NCBI GenBank assembly: GCA_010015805.1
Contig: ML978139.1
Coordinates: forward strand, 310,001-374,000
Length of the DNA: 64,000 bases
Reading direction: 5' to 3'
Source: Rhizodiscina lignyota
Taxonomy: Eukaryota
Made by a program: the position numbers and the translations under genes
The notes under the pieces: generated by a model
What the model was told of the DNA's origin: nothing
What the model saw: the letters and a program-made list of their open reading frames with translations, nothing else
Database searches by the model: none
Shown here: piece after piece, positions 9,039-59,920 of the stretch
Position numbering within the stretch: position 1 is the stretch's first letter
Layout: each line of letters begins with the position of its first letter

Positions 9039-9916
9039 CTAAATCTCCATGTCGCCCGCCTTCTCCATCGCCTTAAGAAGATCACCCTGAAGCAGATTCT
9101 CTACCTCCTCCATGCGCACCGAATCGTAGTCCATCCACACGTCCTCCGGGTGCTGGGGGACGACGTCAAAAGTGTTGCCGTGATCGAATTGAAGTGGTTG
9201 AATGGGCGCCGCCATGAACCACTGAACGGTCGGGTTGTTCGGGATAATGCGTGGGAGCGGAATCATGCGGCGAACGCCCGTCTTCTGCCTCTCTTGTCCC
9301 TCGTACTTCAGCTCGTTGTGGCACGGCCATCCTGTGCGCTGCACCTGACTCCAGCATGGATTCCAGACCGTGGGATGCACGAGCACAGCGCCACGGCCGT
9401 CCCAGAATTGCTTGCCATTGAATGGGGCATTGAGTTGTGACGGTTCTGTCCGACCCTCCTGTTGCTGAGCCTTCTCCATCATGTTCTGTATCTTGGCCTC
9501 GTGAACGTCCACCCCGTGTTGCAAGAAAGCGTCGAGTTCCCACTGCGCGATTTCGGAGGAAGGAAAATGCTTGTCGACTTGGCCCTTGATACGCCTCCAC
9601 CTCCGCTTGTGGATCGTGTACGGACTCTCCCACGTGTTAGAAGACGTATACGCCACGTGTGTTCCCTCGCCCAGCCCACTTTGTGCCATTTGATCAAATG
9701 CAAGCGGTATATCCTCGGGCACCGTTGTCAGCTGTCGGCGATGCGTGTACACCCTGCCAATTTGCGGCGTAGGGACAGGAGGTGCTCCAGTGAGGAGCGG
9801 CGCCGCAGGAGGCGTTATTTGATTGGCGGGCTATGCTCGAGTAAGCCACATCTGTATTGGAAAATATGGTGAAGATGAAGTAGAAATAGTCTGAAATAAC
9901 CCACGTCAACCTGCAT
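9039..9916 (-). CDS. Uncharacterised fungal protein; predicted micro-exon (MQ) at 9911-9916 and intron ~9831-9910
   Basis: 237-aa ORF whose frame stays open up to a TAG acceptor at ~9831; contains WPCHNELKYEG...RMIPLPR. The start is inferred. Confidence 0.65.
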
Positions 9917-18251: not shown

Positions 18252-18818
18252 TTGGAGAACCATCGACACCGACAATGCAGTTCCCCGACTCGCCGCTGGC
18301 GTCGAATTGGCTGGGGGAACCATGGTGCATGAAGCACAGGTGATTGCGGAGTTGACGCCGCTTGCAAGTGATCCAATTGGTAATGTCTCATCCAATGGGA
18401 TGTTCCGCAGAAGATTTCGAAAATCCCAAGGGCTAAGGAGGCAGCCAAGCGCCGCACCGGAAGAATGATAATCCGAAAATTGTTTTCGGGGTCTCAGGGG
18501 ACGTCGACGTCGACCTACGTCACAGCATGACTTCCATTTGCGATAACCTGGATGATCTGCACGCGCGCTCCAGACACGGCGTCCGCGGAGCCTCATCAGG
18601 GTCTGTGGCAGGATTTCTGTCGTCAGAAACTTGGACAAACTTGGTGACGATCGGAGATGACGACCTTGCCTCTAACGTCAAAGGCAGCGTGGCTGTGGGA
18701 AAATTAGGTATAAGTATAAGCATAGAGTCGCCATTGCTTCTTCTCCAGTTCAAATCTAAAATCATACATCCTCCTGTCTACTCATCAACCTACCAAAGCA
18801 AATCATATTCCATCTATA

Positions 18819-19030
18819 ATGGATTCTCAGCAGTCAATGGATTACTCCAACCAGTCAATGGATTCACAGCAGCCAATGGACTCTCAGCAGTCAATGGATC
18901 CTCAGCAGCAGCAGATGGGCGGCCAGATGGGCGGCCAGATGGGCGGCCAGATGGGCGGTTCGCAGATGGGCGGTTCGCAGATGGGCGGTTCGCAGATGGG
19001 CGGTTCGCAGATGGGCGGTTCGCAGATGGG
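18819..19030 (+). repeat. Coding minisatellites: ~18-nt ATGGATTCTCAGCAGTCA-type units, then 12-nt CAGATGGGCGGC and 15-nt CAGATGGGCGGTTCG units
   Basis: Tandem repeats directly visible. Confidence 0.92.
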
Positions 19031-19406
19031 GGGTTCCACTGGCGCTCCCAAGGAGGACTACCTCGACAAGGGTATGCCATCCTCACTCCACAACCCATTC
19101 CTGCGTTAGACTGACATACATTTCAGGCCTCGATACCGCTGAGAAGAAATTTGGCGGCCAGTATGGCATGGGCGACCCTCAGAAGATGCGCAGCACCAAC
19201 GAGAAGATTGTAAGTGGCTTCATAATACCTGAAGTCGAGATCACGCCGGCCACGCCTCCTGTTTAAGGTCCGCCCTGCCTTGGACCGACGTTTTTCTACA
19301 TTCTGAAGTCGTGAGCTAACGATTGAGTGTTGGATAGACCGACGGTGCACGCGGCATGTTCGAGAAGATGACTGGCAAGAACGTCCCGGACAAGGTTTCC
19401 AACTAG
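18819..19406 (+). CDS. Small hydrophilic Gln/Gly/Met-rich protein; introns ~19072-19126 and 19209-19336
   Basis: MDSQQS and GGSQM repeats, then spliced KEDYLDK|GLDTAEKKFGGQYGMGDPQKMRSTNEKI|TDGARGMFEKMTGKNVPDKVSN*. Confidence 0.85.
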
Positions 19407-23578: not shown

Positions 23579-25878
23579 ATGAAGTTGCTGGGGCTCGCTG
23601 CGGCGGCTGCAGTGACATTGCCGTCGCTGGCTGCAGCTAAATACGCCCACGAGGCAAAGGCTGTTGCTCCTCGAGCATGGTGTACGTCAACCAATCTTCA
23701 TTCTCTTGATAGGCAGCTCACATACCAGCAGACCCAAAGTACAATACAACCACGCCAAGCTTGACCTCTTCGAGCACTGAAGAATCGGCGACGCCGACCG
23801 CCTCGCTCTGCACAACCACCGTCCCGGTTGTCGAGTACATTCCCGCCATCTCAACATCGACTGTCTACTCAACTTCCGAAGTGACAATCACAAGCTGCGG
23901 CCCAGAGGTCTACTCCTGTCCGGCACACTCCACGGCGATTGTCACTTCATACGTGGCAGTTTCGACGACAATCTGTCCCCTGACGTTGACAAGCTCTTAC
24001 TCCACTGTGATCACAACCATCACGGTTCCGGCCCATTCCCCTTCGACCATATACAAGACACACTCGGTCACGGTCACGTTGTCTCAGAGCCTCCCGCCGG
24101 TCTACGTGCCACCATATGGAAAGCCAGGCTCTTCAGCACCTCCAGTGTATTCGAAGCCAGGCAGCCTCTCAGGCTCTTCCTCGTCTCCGCCGTTGTACTA
24201 CACATCGGAGAGCTTTTCCACGCCGACGCATTTGTATTACTCGCTGAAGAGCAAATCCAGTTCGACTCCATCTCCGCATTGGTACGGGTACGGAAGTGTC
24301 TCAAGCCAATCCAGTTCAACTTCTCCACCAGTGTACTACGCACCAAAGAGTGAGTCCAGCTCTTCCTCGTCGCCTCCGGTATATTACACGCCGAAGAGCA
24401 AGTCCAGCTCGACTTCGCCTCCATGGTACTACTTCTCGAGTCCGTCGAGTAAGTCCAGCTGGTCTTCGTCCCCACCAGAGTACTCAACTCCAAGCTCAAG
24501 CTCGCCTTCGGCCTACCATGAACACAGCTCTTCCTCTCTTCCAGTGTACACGCAATGGAAAACGGCAAGCTCGAAGACTTGGGAGCGTTCAGAGTCCAAG
24601 CCACCTCCATACACGGCGCCGCCTTACGGATCTGTGCCGCCTTATGGATCTGCGCCGAAGCCGTCGAGCTCAACTCCAACATGGCATGTCTATTCCTCAA
24701 GCATAACCTGGACACTGCCTCCTTGGGTCCCACCATCAAAGGAAACGACTTGGACAACAGCAACAATCACGGTGCCTTGTCCCGTATGCCACGAGTCGAC
24801 GACAACAACCTGCGTAACTGTGCCAGTTATTCCACCGCCTCCAACTTCTTGGTATGAGTCGCCGCCTCCATCATCCTCTTCAACCCCGGCACCACCTCCA
24901 CCACCGCCTGTCTCGGTGCCTTCATACGTCTGGATAAGCCCTCCTGTTTCGCTATCGTCCTGGAGTTCGTCAACGCCTGTGCCACCACCACACTCTCCAT
25001 CTCCGTACTCTCCTCCATACATTTGTATCACTCTCACTCCGACAACCACACCACCGGCTCCGTACTGGACACCCACAAGCTCTTCAACATCTCTGCCTGG
25101 GCATCCTCCACCGCCAGCGACTTACTCCAAGCCACCGGTCAGTCCACCACCATACGTTTCTCCTCCATCGTCACCAAGCAGCACGCCAAAGTATGGCCAG
25201 CCACCTTCAAGCACGTCAACATACGGCGCACCACCTTCAAGCGCTCCGTCAACATATGGACCTCCTCCAGCGTCGCCGCCTTCAAGCAAGCCACAAACGT
25301 ATGGACCCACCACAGCATCACCTCCTGTTCGCACGCCGTCAACATATGGATCACCGGCTTCCAGCACTCTGCCAGCATACGGAACGCCAGCTTCCAGCAG
25401 CCCGCAGACATACGCACCTCCGGCATCGCCTCCTGTAAGCAGCACCCCAACATACGGACAGCCTCCAGCAACTCCATCTGTCTACACACCTCCAGCGGTT
25501 CCAAGCGAATCGAAGATAACGGTTACGGTGATCCCGAGTCCTGTGCCCTCATCTTATTCTGTTTCCGGTGTACCGCCAGGCTATGGGGTATCAATCATTG
25601 TGCCAAGCTCAACGACCATCGTCATTCCACCATACACGACACCAAGCTCGCCCGAGAAGACGAAGTCTCTTGCTCCTCCAGCATACACTCCGCCGTATGC
25701 ACCACCTGCAAGCAGCACACCAGGCGCTCCGACTACACCAGCTGGCCCAGCGCACCCTGGAAACGTCACCGTTCCAACATCGCCATACACAAGCCTTTAC
25801 ATGAGCAAGGCTTCACTGTCATTTGGCACTGCTTCCACGGTGCTCATTGCGGCCATGGCCTTTGTGCTCTTCTACTAA
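23579..25878 (+). CDS. Secreted Pro/Ser/Thr/Tyr-rich (extensin-like), probably GPI-anchored protein; intron ~23681-23729
   Basis: Signal MKLLGLAAAAAVTLPSLAAA, STVYSTSEVTITSCGPEVYSCPAHST wall-protein motif, SPPVY and STYG repeats, hydrophobic tail LIAAMAFVLFY. Confidence 0.88.
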
Positions 25879-46837: not shown

Positions 46838-47782
46838 CTATTCTCCAATCCGACGACCTCCCAACCCGACTCCGTTGTCGAATGCAGTGCTCCTCGCGAC
46901 TTTGTCAATGATGTCTAGATCTTTGGTAAACTTGTCGACATATTCTCTCGCTTTGTCCATGGCATCTCCACCAAGAGGTAGCCGCAGACAACCTTTGATA
47001 TCCTCTGCAGCACCCGAACCCGTGCCAGTAGCAACGTCAATGATCACTTTCGCCGCTTTCGCTGGATCTCCTTCCTGAGTTCCATGTATCGTGGGATAAT
47101 GCGACAAGGCGCTATCCACGGGGCCTCCAACATAGTCGTCACCGAGTCCCTTCGCAGGCGTGGCGTATGAGCTCACCAACCAATTTGTCCGAAACAGCCC
47201 AGGCTCGACAATGAGAAGGCGGATCCCAAACGGCTTCAGCTGCAGCGCCAATCCCTCGCCGAGGGCTTCGAGAGCAAATTTAGACGCAGAATACATGATG
47301 CCGCTTGCCATCGATAAGGTCAGGCCGGATATGCTGGACATCATGACTATTGCCCCTCGTCGTTTTTGGCGGAAGTGTGGGATTACGCCTTTGGTCACTT
47401 TTATTGTGCCGAAGAAGTTTGTTTCAAATTGAGCTCGAATCTCCTCTTCACTAGATTTCACTGTCAACATGTAGCCCAGAGATGGATATGGTAGTACTAA
47501 CCTCATATCTTCCAAAGCACCGTAAATTCCATAGCCTGCAGCATTAACAAGTACATCCAGATCTTCTCGCTCCACAAGCTCGCAGACTACCTCTTGGATA
47601 TTGGCAGCAGTCAGATCAAGTTGCAACCATTTCCCTCCAGCTTGAGCGAATTCTGGATGTTGATCTGCCGCCTTTTTGATATTGCGGCCGGTACCAAATA
47701 CCACATGACCTCTCTGAAGCGCGTCCAATGCAATTGCAAGGCCGAGACCGGATGACGCCCCCGTAACAAGAAATTTGTGCAT
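46838..47782 (-). CDS. Short-chain dehydrogenase/reductase (17-beta-HSD-like); in-frame intron 47451-47501
   Basis: FLVTGASSGLG, LDVLVNAAGYG, QFETNFFG, YSASKFALE, IVEPGLFRT, GDPAKAA, RLPLGGDA. Confidence 0.93.
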   Translation of the reverse strand: MHKFLVTGASSGLGLAIALDALQRGHVVFGTGRNIKKAADQHPEFAQAGGKWLQLDLTAANIQEVVCELVEREDLDVLVNAAGYGIYGALEDMRLVLPYPSLGYMLTVKSSEEEIRAQFETNFFGTIKVTKGVIPHFRQKRRGAIVMMSSISGLTLSMASGIMYSASKFALEALGEGLALQLKPFGIRLLIVEPGLFRTNWLVSSYATPAKGLGDDYVGGPVDSALSHYPTIHGTQEGDPAKAAKVIIDVATGTGSGAAEDIKGCLRLPLGGDAMDKAREYVDKFTKDLDIIDKVARSTAFDNGVGLGGRRIGE

Positions 47783-48222
47783 CCCGTCTCTTTCAGTCAC
47801 GATCTTCGAATGTGTCTTGTCCTTTCTTGCGAATGGTCGTTGGGTTGATGAGGTGCCGAGGATCGGCGGAGTGTTGTCCACCGAGTCACGAAACCTCTCC
47901 CCTCTTCAAGTGACGAAGCTAAATACAAGAACTCCGTGCCCTTCTCCAGGTTTCGCTCTTCCAGTCATTAGTGCATCGTCCGGAGAGTATTGCTGCGGGA
48001 TAGATTTCTGGCGCTCCTTTAAGTAAGTTCCGTACCCCACCACAAGGAATGACCCCACTCGAAGCTGACGTTGAAATAAGGATCCATCGATATAGCTGCA
48101 AACAGCCATTGATAATTTCCTTCTGCCACTGAACTTCAAGAATCAATCCTTCTTCTATTTCGGTATAGTCCTTAGTCACTTGAAAACAACCACGCCCCAT
48201 AGACCTCTGAATACGTGCGACA

Positions 48223-49084
48223 ATGTCGTCCGACGCTGAAGTAAAGACTCTATGCGAGGAAATCAAGAAGAATTTTTCAGCGTGTGATGTAATCCTTCTT
48301 TCCACTCGAATGCTTCAAAATGCCAACCTTATGCACTACAGGTGTCAGACGCTCTGCTAACGCTGCACGTGCCTTCTGCGGGTCTGCTCCCGGATATCCG
48401 TATGCCTTCCTCAAATATATTATGGAAGTGAACTTTATTTTCCCCTAATAGATTTTGCTAGACCCAATACCGCGACAGAAGTACTGGTACACTCGTATCG
48501 TTGCGCCCATCAGCACGGTCGTTTTCGTCCCGACAGATCTCTCGCCAGGCAGCCCGTTATGGATTGAGGGCGTCCCAAAGGAGTCCAATATCCCGGCAGG
48601 AAAGCACTTTACAGACATTCCTCCCCCAGGATCCATTCTACTGGAGCATAATCCAAAAGATCAGCTCGTGGCGCTGTTCGGTGATATTGTCGCCACACGT
48701 CTCAAGACCCGCGGCGTTCTGGGTGCCATTGCTAACGGCCGTGGACGCGATTTTGTTTCTTCCGACAAGGTCTGTGATGAGAACTTTACCATGTGGTGCA
48801 AGGGTCTAAGTACCGTGGGCACGTCGATGGAGGCGAAGCCGTGGGCTGTGGACGTGCCGGTCAAGATTGGGAAGGTGGAGGTTAACCCGGGAGACATCAT
48901 GGTCGCGGATGAAGGTGAGAGGGGAATTGCAGTCATTCCGAGGGATAAGCTGAAGAAGATTGTTGAAATGCTTGCGGTGCAAAAGAAGGCAGATGATGGG
49001 CTGCTGAATGACGTAAGGAATGGACAGAGCATGGCGGATGCGATTAAGAATTGGCCGGAGCATTATAGTGTTCAGCCACACTGA
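48223..49084 (+). CDS. RraA-like / 4-hydroxy-4-methyl-2-oxoglutarate aldolase family protein; two short 5' introns
   Basis: FSACD|VSDALL, ALFGDIVATRLKTRG, GRGRD, VNPGDIMVADEGERGIAVIP. Confidence 0.88.
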
Positions 49085-49345
49085 TTGTGCGGACTTTGTG
49101 GCATTATACTATCCACTGCAGTATCTTCAGATGCTCAATTAGTAACAGGACCTATTGTTCGCGCTTGCGTGCGAACTACGAAGGGCCGAGCAAAGTGTGT
49201 CTCTTTCGTACGGAGCTCCCGTCTTTCACAGAGAACCAGTGACGGAAGTTCTCCTCATCTTCATTTTAAATCATCACTTCCATGCGTTCCGACGTCAATG
49301 GTCCAGGCATGCGTTGATTCTTTATTTTCAGGCAGAATAATAACT

Positions 49346-49867
49346 CTACAGATCATGTTCTCTCTGTGGCCACCGAAACAAGTCCATATACTTCTCGACA
49401 AAGTTCAGATCCGTCGTCATCGGGCCCGTAATCCGACTGTCAACTCGGCGATCTCCATTCGAATAGGTCCTATGTTTACGAGAAAGGCTCTCGATTTCGG
49501 CGTCCTCCATTCGCCTGACGGGCCAGAAATCCATAATATCCAATGCGAACTCCCCAGCCGAGGTCAAGGCCTTCCTCGCGGCTTGCCTCATAGCAACCCA
49601 ACGCTCCCCCAATATTGACGTTTTAGAAACACTGCATCCGGATGTCCCAAAACATTCCGGCTCTGCTCTGGTCCGGTGCCCGGTGCAGCGTGTATTGCGA
49701 CATATCCAGAGTCCTTTCCAGCCGACGACTGAGTTAAACCAGTCGCTATACGAAAAGCACTCCTGACATGATGGAGCTCCAGCGCGAAGATGCTCGCCGA
49801 CTAAGTGCTCGGGAATGTCTTTGAGTTTTAGTGCCGATGGGTACGCTGGTGAGGCGAAGTTAAACAT
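49346..49867 (-). CDS. Cys/His-rich domain family, paralogue 1 (173 aa, unknown function)
   Basis: EHLRAGAPSCQECF...LWICRNTRCTGHRTRAEPECFG...W..MR..A..ALTSAGEFALDIMD...TTDL; aligns by eye with paralogues 2-6. Confidence 0.8.
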   Translation of the reverse strand: MFNFASPAYPSALKLKDIPEHLVGEHLRAGAPSCQECFSYSDWFNSVVGWKGLWICRNTRCTGHRTRAEPECFGTSGCSVSKTSILGERWVAMRQAARKALTSAGEFALDIMDFWPVRRMEDAEIESLSRKHRTYSNGDRRVDSRITGPMTTDLNFVEKYMDLFRWPQREHDL

Positions 49868-50078
49868 CGTGTTCTTGCGAAGAGAGTGAATTGTTTAACA
49901 AGACTTGATGGAGAAGTATGACCACTCGAGGAACTGTGATGGAATGACAATATTGAGATTTACTGAGGTGTTCTACGCTAACTTGTATTTAAGGTCGATA
50001 AGTTCAGTGACAAGAACGTTTCGAGGTCCGAGAGCATTCACTCAACGTACCATGTCACATCAATTACCATCGACCAAG

Positions 50079-50630
50079 TCAAGTTGTATCATATGACCAC
50101 AGATCATGCTCTCTCTGCGGCCATCGAAAGAGATCTAAAAATCTCTCCACACGAGCAAGATCTGTCACCACAGGCCCTTTCAACTTGCACATGAGACCAT
50201 AATCAGCCGGAGCCAATAGTACGCCCCTCATTGTCGGCCCTGGGCAAGCATGTCGATAATCATCTGCCAACTGCTGGATATGCATATCAGTCATTTCCCT
50301 GACCGGCCAAAAGTCCATGATGATATCGAGAGCCCATTCACCAGCTTGCGGAAGCGCCTCTTGAGCGGTGCCCCTCACAGCGGCCCAACCGCCGATCCAG
50401 CCGTTTTGATATACTATATGCCTTCTACCGAAGCATTCGGGCTCGACTTTTGTTCGATGGCCGTAACAATGCTCGTTATGGCATTTCCAAAGGCCAGAAG
50501 TAGAGCAAGCGTAGCATTTGCGATTGCATGATGGCTCGCCGGCGCGAATGTGCTCGCATTGTAAATTCTCAGGGACTTCATCGCGATTGACGTCGATTAG
50601 TCGAGTCCATGAAGTGATGCCCGTTGCCAT
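50079..50630 (-). CDS. Cys/His-rich domain family, paralogue 2 (~183 aa)
   Basis: CEHIRAGEPSCNRKCY...LWKCHNEHCYGHRTKVEPECFG...ALPQAGEWALDIIMD...VVTDL; start taken at MATGITSW. Confidence 0.82.
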   Translation of the reverse strand: MATGITSWTRLIDVNRDEVPENLQCEHIRAGEPSCNRKCYACSTSGLWKCHNEHCYGHRTKVEPECFGRRHIVYQNGWIGGWAAVRGTAQEALPQAGEWALDIIMDFWPVREMTDMHIQQLADDYRHACPGPTMRGVLLAPADYGLMCKLKGPVVTDLARVERFLDLFRWPQREHDLWSYDTT

Positions 50631-51107
50631 GATTCCGTTGTAAAGGGAGTTGAAATATAGGAAATATTTGTTTGGCCTCGAAGGAATACCGAGTTTGAAT
50701 CTTTGCAAAAGAACACATTTAAGAGTATGAAACATTCAAACATAATAAATATTAATAGCAATAGCCGGCCTTGTGACAGCCAGTGTCACTATTATGTCCA
50801 TGGGACTACGAAGATATTGTATTTAATTGTGAAACACTGAAGCGCCTTTGTCTTATAATGGAAGCAATGTGATTCAGATCAATTTTTTATTTAGATTCAA
50901 CTTTAGCCTATGAATCTCGCTGCTCATATGAATCTCTCAGTTACCTATTGAGAGCTCGGGAACAGTCATGTATAGACAGATTGGTTATGATAAGCTGCAT
51001 CATCGCTATTCACTCAGCTCATACCTTAATTCTCAGTCTTCCAGCCGCACGACACCAACCCGCTGAAACAATGTAGTAAGTGCGCCGGGAATGGGAAAGG
51101 CGTATCA

Positions 51108-51650
51108 TCATTCCAGAATCCGGTTCATCCTGGACATGTCCGGTAGAGGGATCCCAGCGGCCCTCTCGAAGTCCCAGACCTTTTGCAAAGCGTCGTCGTC
51201 CTGGTTGACAATTCTCCGACCTGTACTGGCAGTGTCTCCTGCCTGAAACTTTGCTGCCACCTCTCGCACCTGAGCCTCGCTCATGCGGATAACATTATCC
51301 CCGTAAACGATAACCTCGAGTGCCCAGTAGTCAGCAGCTGGAAGCGCATGCTTTGCCTTCGCCCGCTGCTTGCGCCAGAAGTTCAAAGTGTGGTTGTAGA
51401 GGAATGGAGCTGTACCAAAGCACTGGAACTCGCACTTGGTACGGTGGCCAATGCAGTGAAGGTTATCGCATTTCCAAGGACCAGCAGAGGCCCTGGTGTA
51501 GCAACCACCTGTGCAGGCTGGACCTTCAAACATGATGTGCTGGCATCGCATCATCTCGGGGACTGCAGCAACATTGACATCGACACCGTTGATGCGCCAC
51601 GTCGTAGTGGTGTTGGCACTAGACCATTCAGGGTGCCAGTAATCGCTCAT
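51108..51650 (-). CDS. Cys/His-rich domain family, paralogue 3 (180 aa)
   Basis: WRING...RCQHIMFEGPACTGGCY...PWKCDNLHCIGHRTKCEFQCFG...ALPAADYWALEVI. Confidence 0.82.
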   Translation of the reverse strand: MSDYWHPEWSSANTTTTWRINGVDVNVAAVPEMMRCQHIMFEGPACTGGCYTRASAGPWKCDNLHCIGHRTKCEFQCFGTAPFLYNHTLNFWRKQRAKAKHALPAADYWALEVIVYGDNVIRMSEAQVREVAAKFQAGDTASTGRRIVNQDDDALQKVWDFERAAGIPLPDMSRMNRILE

Positions 51651-51815
51651 GCTTGATCGATGAAAGTAGAATAAGTTGGTAATCTAGTGAACCGAAAGAG
51701 GTCTCGAGTGGTATTACCAAGTGACTTGCTTGCTTATAGAACTTCTAGCATAGAGGAAGAGTAGTAGACCGAAGACAAGAAACCGCCCTTCTTTTATACC
51801 TTGACACGTTAACCT

Positions 51816-52420
51816 TCAATGCCCTCTTATGACCCCACCGTTACGCAGAGCGCCTAGATCCATTGCCGCATTGCCGGTACATTCTGCCTTCGCGGATGCC
51901 TCCTTAGGTACTCTATAGGCGCGTAAGCAGGCCGAGTCTCCGTAATTCCCTAATCTCGCGACCTCCACAAGCGCCCTCGCCGCGTACCAATCCGTCACAA
52001 CCTGCCTGCCTATTGCCGTGATGGTTGGATCTGCCTCCTCGTACATCCTCGCGAGCATTGACCACTCGATATTAGGAAAGTGCCTTCACTCCGAGACCTC
52101 CTGAGCAAGTGTCCGTCGGCGATGATCTCGAGTGCACATTTTCCGGCCTCGGGAAGCAGTTCGGTGGTGCGCGCGCGAGTTTTAGTCCATCTTCCGGCTT
52201 CACGATTGGCGTAGAGGCATGGTTGGGGCCGAGGCACTGCTAGCCATACTTAACGAGAGAGCTGAAAGCTTTCGAGGTCTATATAGAATAGAAGACTTCT
52301 TGGGGTGTCCAACGTAGTGCGGATTTTCATATTCCCAAAGGCCGCCTGGAGAAGGCTGCTATCAGCCCTTCCTACAGAGTGGGCCATCTCGGGGATCTAT
52401 TATGACACCGCCACGAGCCT
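51816..52420 (-). pseudogene. Cys/His-rich domain family, paralogue 4 (pseudogene)
   Basis: GPLCRKG**QPSPGGLWEYENPHYVGH (conserved C and Y changed to stops, two C changed to Y), KYG*QCLG, then frameshifted RWTKTRARTTELLPEAGKCALEIIADG and RQVVTDWYAA. Confidence 0.8.
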
Positions 52421-52924
52421 CCGGGTGAAGGAGTATAGCAGCCGGCGTTGCTAGCCGCTCCACTTCCTTGCTAATCGCAAAAATGGAGGTCAGCAGAGAT
52501 CGAATTCCGAGACTCGTCGTGCTCCATTCATATCAATATACCACGTCTGGTACTCCCCCGCAGAGAATATTTTGCTTGATGAAATCCATTGGGGATAAGT
52601 GTGAGATTTTTTGGAGAGCTTAATAAATGGCCGAACTAGACAAAAGTAGTAAAATGAGAAAAATGGAACATTTATACTTCCCGAAAAAAGAATATGACGC
52701 AAAAGCCTTCACAGGAAGTCAAGAAAGGTATCGTTTTAAGCGCCAGGTGGAAGCATGGACCTCATGACGATATCTCTTCCAAGCCTTGAGCGCCCTTTGA
52801 GAATATGTCCCATGACGATAGCTCTCTTTCCCACGTCTAATCGGCAGCTGAAACCATGTCTCACGACAATACGTCTTTCCCGCCTCTGGTGGCGTTCCAA
52901 GCCACGATCGATACGCATGCACGT

Positions 52925-53434
52925 TCAAGCTCGCCCTCGCAGCCTCGCCTCACTTACCATCCACACTGCCGCCCCCAAATCAGTGACCACCTCCGTAGGT
53001 ATACTCGGATGTCCATGACGATACATATCAGCAACATAAGTCCACAACTCCGGATCGTGCCTAAGATCTATCTGTTTCAACCACCCATCACATATCAGTT
53101 CTAGCGCCCAAGATCCGGCAGATGGCAGCACTGTAGTCGCCTGTTGGCGCAAACTACGCCATTGGCGTTCGTACACATGGTTCCATGAATTGAGGCCAAT
53201 GCATTGGAAGTCGTAGCGCCACTCGTGGCCAGCGCAGTACGGGTTATGGCATTTGTAAGGGCCACCGGCAGAGGGGGCATAGCAGCCATTGTGTTCGCAG
53301 GCGTGCCCGACGTACTGGAGATGGTAGCACCTGACTTGTGGTGGAACGTTGTCGGGATTTTCGAATTGTCCATTGATGATGTAGAGCGCTCCCTCGGCGG
53401 CCCCTTCCCACCTTGGGGGATTTGGATCTATCAT
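52925..53434 (-). CDS. Cys/His-rich domain family, paralogue 5 (~169 aa)
   Basis: YIING...VRCYHLQYVGHACEHNGCY...PYKCHNPYCAGHEWRYDFQCIG...VLPSAGSWALELICDG...VVTDL; start taken at MIDPNPP. Confidence 0.82.
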   Translation of the reverse strand: MIDPNPPRWEGAAEGALYIINGQFENPDNVPPQVRCYHLQYVGHACEHNGCYAPSAGGPYKCHNPYCAGHEWRYDFQCIGLNSWNHVYERQWRSLRQQATTVLPSAGSWALELICDGWLKQIDLRHDPELWTYVADMYRHGHPSIPTEVVTDLGAAVWMVSEARLRGRA

Positions 53435-53884
53435 ACGCGACACCCTGGGAGACGAGGAATTTTCAGAAAGTTGAGGATGTTGCAGGGTTGCTAATAGTTT
53501 AACGGTGATGTGTGGAAACAACTGAGCTGGCACTTGGGGAACATCAATTAAATAGAGACCTGGAAGATCTGTTGAGCCGTAATGACGACCGTTGGGTATA
53601 TTCATAGGTGTATAAGGGGTTCGTTATCAAGTTCGTGGCCTCCAAAGTCGCCGTACAGAGCCGAGCAAAGTTTCGTTGACCCTTTCCGTGACAATGTTGA
53701 TATCACAGATATGTGTTAGCGCTCTGTGGAACGATCAGGGGTCATACGTACCGAAGTCTCCCAGTCATAGTGACCTTGATAAATTCCTCACATCGTTTCC
53801 CACATTAACAGTATCCCCAAGCCTCGCTCTCGGTCGTAGCTTTGTCGTGGATCTCAGGCGATTATCCTTTACTTAATTAGCAAG

Positions 53885-55834
53885 ATGTGGAGAACAGCAG
53901 CCTCAACCCAAACCTTCCTCATTAACGGCGTGGAAGAGCCCATATCAACCTTCCCTCATGACGCTAATGTCCGCTGCGCGCACATCCTCAACGGGAGTCG
54001 TGGCTGTCAGCATGGCTGCTACCAGACGCACGAAGATATGCGCGGCGACATGCCCCTCAACTGGTATTGCAATAACGTATACTGCAGCGGCCATCCATCG
54101 AAGTATTATGTGCAGTGCTGCGGCACAACGCCTTGGATTTGTGCCGAGAGAGCGCAATCAGCAATAGATCTATCAGGCGTAGCCGATACCCTCTTGCCGG
54201 GGTGTGATGGTTGGGGTCTGGAGATTATCTGCGATGGATACGCTGACTATCTTGAAAGCGCGGACCATATCCAAGAGGTTGCCATGGGGTATGCTACCGG
54301 GGAGGAAGAGTATGTCGGTGATGGCGCGGTTGTATCCGACTTTCAGGCAGCTGCGCAAGAGGTTGAAAGGTTTAGAGCGAACATGCCGCAATGGTTGAAG
54401 GCTATGGTGCCTGTTCAAGATCGGAGACGAGGTATCGTTCCACAGGAGCTATTGGGTGCAGGCGAAGCACACCAAGTTGGCGGGCAATTGAATAACGTAT
54501 TTGGCGGGAACAACGATGGCCACAGTTTCGATGGAAATGAATTGGGACTGTCGACTACAGAGCACATGACTCGTAATCAGCACATCAGGGGTACTCGGCC
54601 ATCCGCTTCCAATCAAAACCTTGGTGATCCAGGCATAAGAGTCTATGGCCATGGACTTGCTGGCGATGACCCAGAGGTACCGGAGCATGAAGGCGAGTAT
54701 GGCAATGACCCAGATGAGGACGAGGAGGAGGACGGAGAGCAAGACGAAGAGGAAGAGGGTGACGATCAAGAAGGCCAGTCCAGTGGCGAAGACGAGCGTC
54801 AAGCGATTGCTGAATCTCTCAAGGCAGCAAAGGCGGAAAAGGCCGCTGCCACTCGAAGGCAGGCTGAGTTGGAAGCTGAAGAACAACAACAGCTTGAAGA
54901 GATCCAAAGAGTAAGCAGAGAGGAAGCGGTGAGAGCGAGACGTGAGGCAGATATGAGAGATCGCATGGAAGAAGAAGCCTTTATGGCAGAACAAATTAGA
55001 ATGATTGAGGAGCAGGGACGAAAGGAAGAAGCGGCCTTTGCCAAAAACCGAAGAAAGTATGGAGAGATCGAAGCCGCGAAGCAGCAGAAACTAGATGACG
55101 CACAGCTCTTGGAAAATCTTAGGCGGATTGAATTGAGGGAGAAGGAGGAGAAGGAGAAGAGAGAATCTGAAGAAATGGAGATGATACGCCAGACGATTAA
55201 GCAAAGTCTGAAAACGACCGAGACACCTAAACAGAGTGGCACAAACAATGCTCCGAAGTCTAAACAGCGCCCCAGAATGAATGTTGAAGAGCGTCGAACC
55301 AGTAGTGGGGCGCACGCTGTATCTGCTTCCCCAGCGAAACCAGCAAGTCGCAGAGCTGAAGATCCCAGAGCTTCTGTGAAGCCCTCTGCTCAGCCGCAGC
55401 CGATCAAGTCTAGACCAACAAAAAACGGAGCATTGCTTAAGGCTCTCAAGGTACACACCACGAGTGCCTCGAAGCCTGCTTCAAATAATCCAAATTCATT
55501 GCGTCAGCCAAAGACCAAGGCCTCGAACACTCTAACTGTCTCTCAGACTCAGACGAGTATAGTAACGACAACGGTCATGAAAAGCTCCGACATCGCATCT
55601 CGTACATTTGGGAAAGCAAAGAAGACTACCAAAGATGCGGCGACGGAGCAGCAGCGGCTGGGATCTGCGACAACTCCAGATCCTTTGCTGGACGGAACCC
55701 GTGAACAAGCACCGCAACATCCATGGCGTGAAGCCGAGGCTAAGCTAGGTCTTCTCCATAATGAGCATGATAGTCTCCCAGGATACAGTGAAATGGCTGC
55801 TCCTGGAATGAGTATCGAGGCCGACTATGAGTGA
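53885..55834 (+). CDS. Cys/His-rich domain family, long paralogue 6 (649 aa) with acidic tract, charged helix carrying UIM-like motifs, and C-terminal LPxY
   Basis: FLING...VRCAHILNGSRGCQHGCY...WYCNNVYCSGHPSKYYVQCCG...LLPGCDGWGLEIICDG...VVSDF; EDERQAIAESLK; LPGY. Confidence 0.85.
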   Translation: MWRTAASTQTFLINGVEEPISTFPHDANVRCAHILNGSRGCQHGCYQTHEDMRGDMPLNWYCNNVYCSGHPSKYYVQCCGTTPWICAERAQSAIDLSGVADTLLPGCDGWGLEIICDGYADYLESADHIQEVAMGYATGEEEYVGDGAVVSDFQAAAQEVERFRANMPQWLKAMVPVQDRRRGIVPQELLGAGEAHQVGGQLNNVFGGNNDGHSFDGNELGLSTTEHMTRNQHIRGTRPSASNQNLGDPGIRVYGHGLAGDDPEVPEHEGEYGNDPDEDEEEDGEQDEEEEGDDQEGQSSGEDERQAIAESLKAAKAEKAAATRRQAELEAEEQQQLEEIQRVSREEAVRARREADMRDRMEEEAFMAEQIRMIEEQGRKEEAAFAKNRRKYGEIEAAKQQKLDDAQLLENLRRIELREKEEKEKRESEEMEMIRQTIKQSLKTTETPKQSGTNNAPKSKQRPRMNVEERRTSSGAHAVSASPAKPASRRAEDPRASVKPSAQPQPIKSRPTKNGALLKALKVHTTSASKPASNNPNSLRQPKTKASNTLTVSQTQTSIVTTTVMKSSDIASRTFGKAKKTTKDAATEQQRLGSATTPDPLLDGTREQAPQHPWREAEAKLGLLHNEHDSLPGYSEMAAPGMSIEADYE

Positions 55835-58078
55835 GATGCTAAGGATTGTGGACTGCGTACGAATTTGTAAGAAAGACATTGGCGAGGTCGAGATCAACGG
55901 ATTCAAGCTTGTTGCCGAGAATAGCTCGGAATTGATGTACCAGGAAAGACAGAATAACGATAGTTGCGATAAAATAGTATTGCCCAGGTGGCTCGGCCCG
56001 TCTATCCTCTCGGTCATCTAACGCATCTAAGTCAGATAGCCTTTCGCTCGAGATGATCAGAACGAAACTGGGGCTGTTGACGGGATTCCGAGAAGAGTCA
56101 ATACCAATTTAAGAATTACGAAAATACCAGCTTTGTCAAGTCGAAGAAGTGAATGGTGAATTTGAGATCAGCTTAGGCGTGCGTGCTAAAGGTTCCACTC
56201 CAAAGGCTCTATGTCCGATAGCCTGTTTCGTATTAGTTATTGCTAATTCAGGACTGTATCCACTACCGAGACCACCAAATTCGGGGGACGGTCTGAGAAT
56301 CCGTCCTCTCTGCCGACCGAAGGCAGGAAAGACGGGATCGAAGATGGAGCTAGAGGCGATAAACGGCAGCACCATCCGGTATTCGCGGCAGGCCGACATA
56401 TGGTGTGCGAAAAGCTTCAGTCCGGTGGTCACTGGCGCCGCGAGATGGTTCCTAAAGGGGGTGCTGAAGGATTACGTGGACTCAATAGAAGTGCAGAGGG
56501 GGAAGTGCAGCATGGGGATCCGACTGATAGACCGACCCCAAAGGTCACTCTAAGTCAAGAAGAGGTCGTGTTACTCCCGGCACTCTGGGCCAGACAGTGA
56601 CGAATGGGAGGAACGAGATGCGATCGGACGGTTCCTCGACGGAGGCTGGTGCTGACCTTGCTGGGAACAGGATTGCTGGGAACAGGATTGCGGCACTGGC
56701 GTTGTGCGTTGTGCCAAGGAAAAGCTTAGCCTTACTTATTTCGACGTCCTATTGCATCATCGCTTCACCACTGCCCTCTTTGTCTGTGTCTTCCGCGGCC
56801 TCTCGCGGTGCGATGTCTTTATCTTGCCGAGTCTCAGATGCTTCCGTTCTATCGAACGTGCGACACGTACCTGATGCGAAGTGCCGCGGACAGGAATGAT
56901 ATGTGTCTCACCCACGCCGTTCACTGCTGGGATCAGGCACTCAGCGCCTGATCTCCTTCAGGCATGGCTCGTCCACACTACCGCCAGCATTCGACCAATC
57001 TGGCGCACTTCACCCCGCCAAACGAGTATTCCTCCGCAATTGGGCCTACGCTTGACGCTGCAGACGCTGGATCCGTGAGTGCAGAGTAGTTTTCGCTCGA
57101 CGTCTTATACAACATACCTGAGATCGAAGTCGGAGTGGGCCAGAAGATGATGAAGATCTCGGCAATTGGGCAGCGTAGCCCAGGCACGTGCGCGGGACGA
57201 TGAGCGAATCGTTTCGCCAGCGTGAGGCTACAAAACTCGAAACTCTTCCTTGACAGCGTCCCGTCCGCGCCGTCGCACCCCGGCCGACGCCTGCGCTATC
57301 TCTGCACTCTGATGCGCTCGATGCGCTCGTGCGTGTACCGTGTCGCTTTTAGCCAATTGTGACGCCATGGCCCAGCTGAGCTGGACCGTCTTTTAAGGCC
57401 CTGTTCGCTCGTGAGGCGGTGCGGGCAAAGCTTCTTATATCACATCATCGACATGCATTCAGTATATGAGTACCTTCGCGCTCGCATTTCCTCATCCTGA
57501 ATCCGTTACTATACCAATGGGGAATACATCTCATTTGTCGTAAATTTAGTGTTAATTCCTTCTACTTGCGCCCCCGGTTGGCGTACCGAACTGACTCAAG
57601 ACGACTGAATTGCGGCAATGTTACAGCGAGATTTACGTCCTTCTGCTTGAGCAACTCGCCGACGCTGAGCTGAGCTCTGATACGTCGGTTCTAGCTGTCG
57701 AGGCACGAAATCTGATATAACATCGTCGTTCTGGAAATAGCCAATTCGGGCCACAATAACGGCGCGGTAACCACGGCGCAGCGCTGCTGACAATCTCAAG
57801 GGAGATGCGATGGCGCGGTGGTTCATAAAGAGACGGGGCAGCTTCTTTGTTCATATCGATCCACAACCAAGGCCATGGTGACGCCTCACTGATGTGATCA
57901 GATAAAGAGATACGGCATCACCCTTAACACAAAGGTCCAGCCATCCGCCAACCAATCCGAGCCGATTGTGAGGAGCAACCACACAAAGAAAAATACATAA
58001 CACAGTCTCACCAATTAATCTCAAAGATTTATTGGAATACTCTCCCACCTATCTTCAATTCCACTCGTTACTCCACCA

Positions 58079-59920
58079 ATGCCAATGGCAACTCTTCGAA
58101 GTCCTTCGCTAAGGTCTTTCCCCGCATCTTGTCTAATGGCGTCCCCATCGTCTGTCTTGTTACTGTTGTTTACCCTACTCACCATCTTCTCAACACCCTC
58201 CTCTGCGAAACCTTATCCATCCGCTTCAGCTTCTCCAGAGGCTCGTCCTTGGGCAAAACCATGGCCGCATCCGAATCCTTTGGCTGCAGCTGCGGCGCCG
58301 TCGCAGAGCAACACCTTCCAGTATGATGTTATCATCTACGGCGGCACTCCGGCGGCAATCAGCGCAGCAGTCCAAGTCAAGCGCATGGGCAAGACTGTTG
58401 CTATAGTCAACCCCGACGAGCATCTTGGTGGACTCACAAGCTCTGGCTTGGGCTGGACGGATTCCAAAAATGGCAACGCGATTGGCGGGATTGCGCGCGA
58501 ATTCTATAGCGCAGTCTACAAACACTATCTCTCCGACTCAGCTTGGATCCAAATGCCACGCCAGGAATACGTCGACATGAAAGTTTCCGCGCAACCTGGT
58601 CCCGCTGTCGACGGCGACAAGGAGATACAATGGACGTTTGAGCCCAAAGTGGCCGAGTCCATCTTCAAATCGTGGATCAATGACAACAATATCCCCGTCT
58701 ACAATGAGCACCTAGACCGATCGAGTGGAAGTGTCTCCAAGTCAGGCACCACAATCAAGGGCTTCAAGACTTTGTCTGGAAAGACGTTCAACGGCAATAT
58801 GTTCATCGATGCCGGCTACGAAGGTGACCTGATGGATGCAGCTGGCATCTCATTTAGCGTCGGTCGTGACAGCGCTTCTGTCTACGGAGAAAGTGCAGGC
58901 GGCCAGCGCGTCGCCGTTAACGATGGATACGAAGGCGTGGATCCGTACAAGACGAAGGGCAACTCGAAGAGTGGCCTTCTACTCGGAATCCAAGATACTC
59001 TCTCATCACCCCTGCCGCAAGGCTTCACGGGATCAGCAGATGACCTTCGCATCCAGTCTTTCAACTACCGCCTCTGTCTCACACATGATCCGGGTAACAA
59101 GATCGTCGTCACCAAGCCCGCCGGCTACCATGACTCCAACTACGAGCTCCTGCTTCGACTAATCGAAGCCGGCCACAACGCGTCCTTCACAGCTGATCCA
59201 ATGCCAAACCGCAAGACCGACTCGAACTCAGAAGGCAAAGTGAGCTTCGACCTCGTCGGCGGCAACTTCAACGAGGCCACTCATGAGACATATCCCACGG
59301 CAAGCTACGATGAGCGCAAGGCAATGATCGACGCCCACAAGAAATACCAGCAAGGTATCCTGTGGACACTTCAGAACCATCCACGCATCCCCGCCGAACA
59401 GCGCAAGAAGAATGCAGAATGGGGCTACGCAAAAGACGAGTTCACGTCCAACAACAACTGGCCCTATTCTATCTACGTCCGTGAATCACGCCGCATGAAC
59501 GGCATGCATGTCCTAACCCAACAGGACGTGCAGAACCGTGCTGGCTACATCGGCGACGCCGTCGCCGGCCTGGGCTCGTACAACCTCGACTCGCACGTCG
59601 TGCGCCGCGTCGTTATGGGCGACCAAATCTACGACGAAGGCTGGTTCTACATCAGAGAAGGCTCGACACCATTCCCCATCCCATACCAAGCCATCTTGCC
59701 GCAGGCAGACGAGGCGACCAACCTGCTCAACCCGGTCACGCTGTCGGCAACGCATGTCGGCTTCTCTGCCGTGCGCATGGAGCCGACGTTCATGGTGCTG
59801 GGCCAGAGCGCGGGCACAGCGGCCGTACTGGCGATCCAGCAGGGCTGTACAGTGCAAGATGTCGATCGGAAGAAGCTGAATAGTCGGCTGAAGAGCGACA
59901 AGCAGAAGGTTAGCTACTAG
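58079..59920 (+). CDS. Secreted FAD-dependent oxidoreductase (FAD_oxidored-type), intronless
   Basis: Hydrophobic signal, then YDVIIYGGTPAAISAAVQ, HLGGLTSSGLG, FEPKVAE, FIDAGYEGDLM, YVRESRRM, GSYNLDSH, IPYQAILP, SATHVGFSAVRMEPTFMVLGQSAGTAA. Confidence 0.9.
   Translation: MPMATLRSPSLRSFPASCLMASPSSVLLLLFTLLTIFSTPSSAKPYPSASASPEARPWAKPWPHPNPLAAAAAPSQSNTFQYDVIIYGGTPAAISAAVQVKRMGKTVAIVNPDEHLGGLTSSGLGWTDSKNGNAIGGIAREFYSAVYKHYLSDSAWIQMPRQEYVDMKVSAQPGPAVDGDKEIQWTFEPKVAESIFKSWINDNNIPVYNEHLDRSSGSVSKSGTTIKGFKTLSGKTFNGNMFIDAGYEGDLMDAAGISFSVGRDSASVYGESAGGQRVAVNDGYEGVDPYKTKGNSKSGLLLGIQDTLSSPLPQGFTGSADDLRIQSFNYRLCLTHDPGNKIVVTKPAGYHDSNYELLLRLIEAGHNASFTADPMPNRKTDSNSEGKVSFDLVGGNFNEATHETYPTASYDERKAMIDAHKKYQQGILWTLQNHPRIPAEQRKKNAEWGYAKDEFTSNNNWPYSIYVRESRRMNGMHVLTQQDVQNRAGYIGDAVAGLGSYNLDSHVVRRVVMGDQIYDEGWFYIREGSTPFPIPYQAILPQADEATNLLNPVTLSATHVGFSAVRMEPTFMVLGQSAGTAAVLAIQQGCTVQDVDRKKLNSRLKSDKQKVSY

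Follow-up and report, generated by a model that had tools for sequence, protein, structure and literature searches.

A fungal Cys/His-domain protein with UIM-like sites and a C-terminal LPGY motif, and its probable place in the ubiquitin pathway

The 64,000-nucleotide stretch of Rhizodiscina lignyota DNA analysed here (the window) carries a long gene, P0001, as a single open frame of 649 aa on the forward strand (53885..55834). Its protein sequence is present letter for letter in the protein collection, and a second assembly, which may be of the same source, shows no differing letters across 47000-58500. Near the N-terminus pattern and alignments define a Cys/His core (53975..54118 (+), aa 31-78) with eight candidate metal ligands in the arrangement C-x-H..C..C-[YFW]..C-x3-5-C-x-GH..C, next to a helical sub-domain (54134..54394 (+), aa 84-170; alignment and model) that is common to a set of short siblings. 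Behind this shared domain come an acidic tract (54668..54784 (+), aa 262-300, 56% D/E), a charged helical region (54785..55222 (+), aa 301-446), a low-complexity linker and a C-terminal block (55676..55831 (+), aa 598-649) of which the genome holds no second copy. The charged region contains three UIM-like cores: site 1 (54794..54817 (+), aa 304-311) has the Ala, the hydrophobic residue behind it and the Ser and lacks the first hydrophobic, site 2 (54893..54916 (+), aa 337-344) has Ile in place of Ala, and site 3 (55184..55207 (+), aa 434-441) has Thr in that position. The [LP]PxY motif LPGY lies in the C-terminal block (55775..55786 (+), aa 631-634). The original prediction, which had named the open frame, the acidic tract and charged helix behind the shared domain, three UIM-like stretches and an LPxY motif near the C-terminus, is accurate in its coordinates for the frame and all four motifs; its first site, EDERQAIAESLK, lies at aa 302-313, its second at aa 332-347 and its third at aa 429-443.

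The shared domain and the short siblings on which that prediction was built are likewise real. Four intact short copies lie to the left of the long gene on the reverse strand, at 52925..53434 (169 aa when read from the second ATG, in a frame that stays open to 53623; oriented head-to-head with the long gene), 51108..51650 (P0003, 180 aa), 50079..50630 (183 aa from the second ATG) and 49346..49867 (173 aa, having lost the first ligand Cys). With the long gene and a broken copy of approximate ends (51816..52470 (-)), in which pieces of the domain are spread over three frames with stops, they make a cluster of five intact copies and one broken copy within 6.5 kb. The broken copy is best matched by P0022 (55% over 31 aa) and seems to contain a Gly-Gly-x-Trp/Tyr stretch twice (52399-52470 and 52296-52388); its RIP indices of 0.89 and 1.19, compared with 0.64 and 1.28 for the window, give no clear signal. 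Genome searches with three different family members found no further cluster, only one unlinked member, here called the C5 paralogue. A reverse-strand stretch of the window at 9042-9830 was rejected as a family member, its match to the subfamily profile being very weak (E 0.75) and taken as chance. Elsewhere in the window, 18818-19036 holds an 18-base tandem repeat in 4.9 copies and a 15-base one in 9, which read as NGxxAV and DGRFA/DGRP in the frame 18527-19114, and degenerate 30- and 33-base repeats lie at 25139-25477. Over stretches of 159 and 165 residues the NCBI record P0002 is identical to two window ORFs, and it was dropped from the family rows as their duplicate; its gene model fuses the two leftmost short copies (49346-50630 (-)) through a predicted intron that skips the 24-aa C-terminal tail of the first copy. 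P0004 and P0007 both conserve this tail, so the fused model is probably an artefact of annotation.

The long domain is 34, 31, 26 and 18% identical to those of the short siblings. Three window genes are nearer to proteins of another organism than to each other, P0009 being the counterpart of the long gene (56%), P0005 that of the copy at 52925 (47%) and P0006 that of the copy at 51108 (42%), with strong support for the long-P0009 branch alone; the 50079 and 49346 copies are 51% identical to each other and 47-51% identical to P0004. That the orthologue pairs (42-56%) are closer than any long-short pair indicates an old and stable array whose members have been kept separately and not homogenised. 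The longest contig given for each of P0005, P0006, P0008 and P0009 measures 23,118 bases, which suggests that they form one syntenic cluster in a second organism; metagenome scans for family neighbourhoods gave no confirmed locus. No membrane segment was found in any member: the highest 19-residue hydropathy is 1.28 overall, ranges from 0.55 to 1.01 among the five window domains and is 0.85 in full-length P0001.

When 1.84 billion representative proteins were searched with a profile built from these five domains, 36 matched at E 0.001 or better, three of them from this locus; P0030 was discarded as a false match to bacterial-type PPC repeats. Among 30 relatives whose records were consulted, seven bear a species name, and all seven are ascomycetes of the class Dothideomycetes. 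Of 38 family sequences 32 show the eight-ligand pattern, and three of the six exceptions (P0009, P0012 and P0022) start within or past it. From the ligand count we infer that the domain would hold two zinc ions. Most family members consist of the domain alone, and the window subfamily carries the helical sub-domain as an extra. In a second subfamily, with at least 14 short, domain-only members of 84-189 aa among P0013-P0036, the helical sub-domain is replaced by an N-terminal YFDPxGExE..Y stretch.

No Pfam family was matched by more than one of 37 aligned family members, and a search of the PDB by sequence with two profiles returned no match. The domain resembles known two-zinc fingers in having eight Cys/His ligands, a C-x-H start as in ZnF-UBP, and C-x4-C and GH elements as in others, and its spacing is not known from ZnF-UBP, B-box, IBR or the CCHC knuckles. 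The model of the N-terminal domain has a mean pLDDT of 74, with 67-92 per block from aa 91 on and low values of about 50-60 in the Cys/His core; with this model Foldseek found no match at E 0.001 in the PDB or BFVD, and the best Z in a fold comparison was 2.6; a second model, of a compact family member, reached pLDDT 51 and a best Z of 2.2. Fold searches with so poorly modelled a core should not be read as pointing to a new fold, nor as setting the domain apart from the ZnF-UBP, B-box, IBR or RING folds. Two ESM Atlas queries gave no usable feature match. Word-index searches with whole P0001 and with the C-terminal block returned the query alone, and a third, which set the family alignment against longer proteins, came back empty; all missed the known positive P0009, so none of the three has a bearing on rarity.

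UIMs bind the Ile44 patch of ubiquitin. Their consensus core, as given in PMC8273247, is hydrophobic-x-x-Ala-hydrophobic-x-x-Ser. Against it sites 1, 2 and 3 of P0001 fill 3/4, 2/4 and 3/4 core positions, none being complete, and 4/8, 4/8 and 5/8 of all consensus positions; the acidic positions are filled 1/3, 1/3 and 2/3, where the surrounding region has a D/E content of 27% in any case. The UIM profile scan that had been put forward as a check failed to support the motifs: the Pfam UIM model (PF02809, cut-off 21 bits) matched neither P0001 nor five pieces cut from it, and a home-made profile placed them at the level of shuffled sequence. This profile was built from the nine other sites that PF02809 found in the rest of the genome, where first-look candidates only were scored and three of the nine passed the cut-off. 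It gave the P0001 sites 8.4, 0.4 and 9.0, compared with 9.9-28.0 for the nine when each was left out in turn; shuffled P0001 helices equalled the best site in 22% of cases (p 0.22), and 4 of 25 background ORFs reached the same score. For a pair of 3/4 cores within the helix the shuffle p is 0.05, which like all shuffle values here is optimistic, shuffling having destroyed the helical periodicity. Judged by the sequence of P0001 alone, the UIM assignment is not above chance.

The comparison with P0009 (683 aa, a Logan record), the one orthologue that was found, alters this view. It aligns with P0001 over the full length from aa 59 on and has an acidic tract too; identity is 53% for the domain and 42% for the helix, drops to 31% along the low-complexity linker and rises to 67% in the C-terminal block (35 of 52 residues). 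Measured against the consensus its cores at sites 1, 2 and 3 are 2/4, 4/4 and 4/4, and sites 2 and 3 had been named from P0001 before P0009 came to light; the shuffle p of two complete cores is 0.0002 in the helix and 0.0024 in the whole protein. All three site Ser residues and their spacing are kept, and three of four helix Ser are identical. P0009 shows no Pfam UIM match, and its home-made profile score is low (3.3). A reading of aa 362-375 as an inverted UIM (MIU) was rejected, P0009 having a gap at that place. The original description of site 1 as a good fit to the consensus is overstated: it has 3/4 of the core in P0001 and no Pfam match, lacks the first hydrophobic in both proteins and drops to 2/4 in P0009. 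The two copies called weaker, with 2/4 and 3/4 in P0001, are those that are complete in P0009.

LPGY fits the [LP]PxY definition in PMC10721834, and all four residues are kept in P0009, where acidic and small residues flank the motif. Its conservation is not specific, because the surrounding block is 67% identical throughout (0.67^4, or about 0.2). An [LP]PxY occurs anywhere in 7% of shuffled P0001 sequences and in the last 30 aa of 0.4%, a window picked after the motif had been seen. Longer family members show a mild excess, 5 of 10 having [LP]PxY against 4 of 25 background ORFs, with one of the five cases falling within the Cys/His domain. The genome also encodes a presumable Rsp5, a gene whose three WW domains lie in a single frame.

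Two further long members join the same domain to UIMs. P0016, from Pseudovirgaria hyperparasitica (domain E 2e-6), has five strict UIMs behind the domain, matches PF02809 above its cut-off (23.8 bits) and has a non-canonical APPY 35 aa from its end, where no homology to the C-terminal block of P0001 is detectable (p 0.15-0.21). Six UIM-like units stand at a strict 24-25 residue spacing in its aa 142-273. The unlinked C5 paralogue (307 aa, L030:817-1740 (-)) belongs to the same Cys/His family (profile E 1e-9 among 1753 frames), with PPGY directly behind the domain and one 4/4 core at aa 250-257, worth p 0.02-0.05 alone; it has no Pfam UIM match and scores under 1.7 with the home-made profile. 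The strict UIM pattern, fixed before this paralogue was found, is carried by 3 of the 10 longer members; it occurs in 2 of 25 background ORFs and in 1-5% of shuffles. Six of the ten (P0020, P0026, P0028, P0031, P0010 and P0011) show no UIM. A quick tree with long branches does not unite the three UIM-bearing lineages in a single clade (three changes, weakly), and the UIM label is not clustered beyond shuffles (55/500). Domain plus UIM, in part with PY, is thus a family architecture that recurs and is partly eroded in P0001.

The link to the ubiquitin pathway, as originally predicted, is upheld in part: the complete cores and LPGY of P0009, the Pfam-positive array of P0016 and the core of the C5 paralogue argue for it, while the sites of P0001 are weak. 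We conclude that P0001 probably works in the ubiquitin pathway. As to how, we give an even chance to an Rsp5-linked adaptor and/or a soluble scaffold that is itself ubiquitinated, built on the Cys/His domain. LPGY would be the docking point for the Rsp5 ligase through its WW domains, the charged helix would bind ubiquitin weakly and by avidity, and the N-terminal domain would select the partner or cargo, so that P0001 may act as an Rsp5 adaptor and/or be ubiquitinated itself, by the logic of Rup1 or LAPTM5. Binding is proposed to be weaker in P0001 than in P0009 because two Ala positions have changed. The short siblings would be paralogues of the recognition domain that are old and have each been retained separately, and would not be its poisons.

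The combination of UIM and PY is an already known recipe, and the Cys/His domain that carries it here has no Pfam name. Hse1 has a PY element. Among Rsp5/NEDD4 partners LAPTM5 carries a UIM and three PY motifs (PMC2064599) and Rup1 a UBA domain and a PY motif (PMC2626285), each uniting ubiquitin-binding motifs and [LP]PxY in one chain as P0001 may do; they differ from P0001 in that there is no homology, LAPTM5 sits in the membrane, and P0001 has a single PY and the unnamed Cys/His domain. UIM proteins are often themselves ubiquitinated (PMC4276913, PMC7226360). Vps27/Hse1, epsin and ataxin-3 (PF02809) have tandem acidic-led helices ending in Ser within a multi-domain build with disordered regions. 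P0001 resembles them in its build and in its repeated Ser-ended sites, and P0009, P0016 and the C5 paralogue also have complete cores; unlike PF02809 proteins P0001 has no complete core or Pfam match, and its N-terminal domain is not VHS, ENTH or Josephin. A search of the openly accessible literature found no paper combining UIM, filamentous fungi, zinc finger and PY motif, and none on the domain.

The strongest competitor, which we consider unlikely though still worth weighing, is that the UIMs are vestigial in the P0001 lineage, ubiquitin no longer being read, and that LPGY is at most an Rsp5-substrate degron or else just part of a conserved C-terminal interaction block. The Ala and Ser of the UIM are described in PMC8273247 as strictly conserved ubiquitin contacts. 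In P0001 Ala has given way to Ile at one and to Thr at the other of the two sites whose cores are complete in P0009, besides the missing first hydrophobic of site 1 in both; the broken and the Cys-loss sibling also point to turnover in the cluster. Decay is opposed by the retention of the three Ser positions and their spacing, by the three of four helix Ser and the 42% helix identity shared with P0009, and by USP25, which according to PMC8273247 has Val in the Ala position and still counts as a UIM. More doubtful is a reading of the motifs as chance occurrences in a charged coiled coil, P0001 being a lineage-restricted zinc-finger regulator, for example a nucleic-acid- or protein-binding one, with no special tie to ubiquitin. 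It accords with sites at shuffle level, with the background ORFs that equal their profile score and with a family that is mostly domain-only, and it is hard to square with a small family in which three distinct lineages have complete cores, one of them in a Pfam-positive array.

It is improbable that an undescribed fungal domain with two zinc ions, coupled in the long member to UIMs and an Rsp5-docking motif, does the recognising in a circuit of ubiquitin disposal that has the linked short proteins as clients or competing decoys, an old and stable sensor/decoy or poison/antidote cluster working without near-identity. The original proposal, by analogy with the Wtf drivers of fission yeast, was that the long form could bind the short siblings and send them into the ubiquitin pathway, or that the short forms could act as decoys. 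Spelled out, contact would be made by way of the domain common to both and lead to Rsp5 and degradation, the long form being an antidote, or the short forms would compete for the partner of the long one. In its favour are the tight linkage of six copies in 6.5 kb with the long gene head-to-head with one short copy, the similar set apparently together on the 23,118-base contig of another organism, and the PY motifs that make Wtf antidotes (PMC10721834). The cluster does resemble those drivers in that the longer member has a PY motif absent from the shorter ones. Wtf proteins, however, are described in PMC10721834 as multi-pass membrane proteins: a single gene yields both poison and antidote through alternative transcription starts, and the two have their membrane domains in common. 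A Wtf poison is, according to bioRxiv 2024.08.27.609905, generally neutralised only by identical or highly similar antidotes, not by widely diverged genes; here the genes are separate, soluble and 18-34% identical. The analogy thus fails for want of membrane segments and long-short near-identity. A model of the long N-terminal domain with the 52925 sibling and zinc, run without alignments, scored 0.00 and is uninformative either way. With one-to-one counterparts of three cluster members in another organism, orthologue pairs closer than long-short pairs, many relatives that appear as domain-only proteins, no sign of toxicity in the sequence, no positive evidence for an adaptor or antidote and nothing observed that points to decoys, disposal of the siblings is the least probable of these readings and a very improbable one. 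A bearing on fungal poison-antidote systems would arise only if the short proteins proved to be clients or decoys, which present evidence makes unlikely.

Under the adaptor or scaffold reading, UIM and PY are attached to a Cys/His domain that lacks a Pfam name and is joined to UIMs in three lineages. Should binding be confirmed, the domain would be a new module by which the Rsp5 pathway of filamentous fungi recognises cargo, and P0009 with intact and P0001 with eroded UIMs would form a natural pair for the study of UIM decay.
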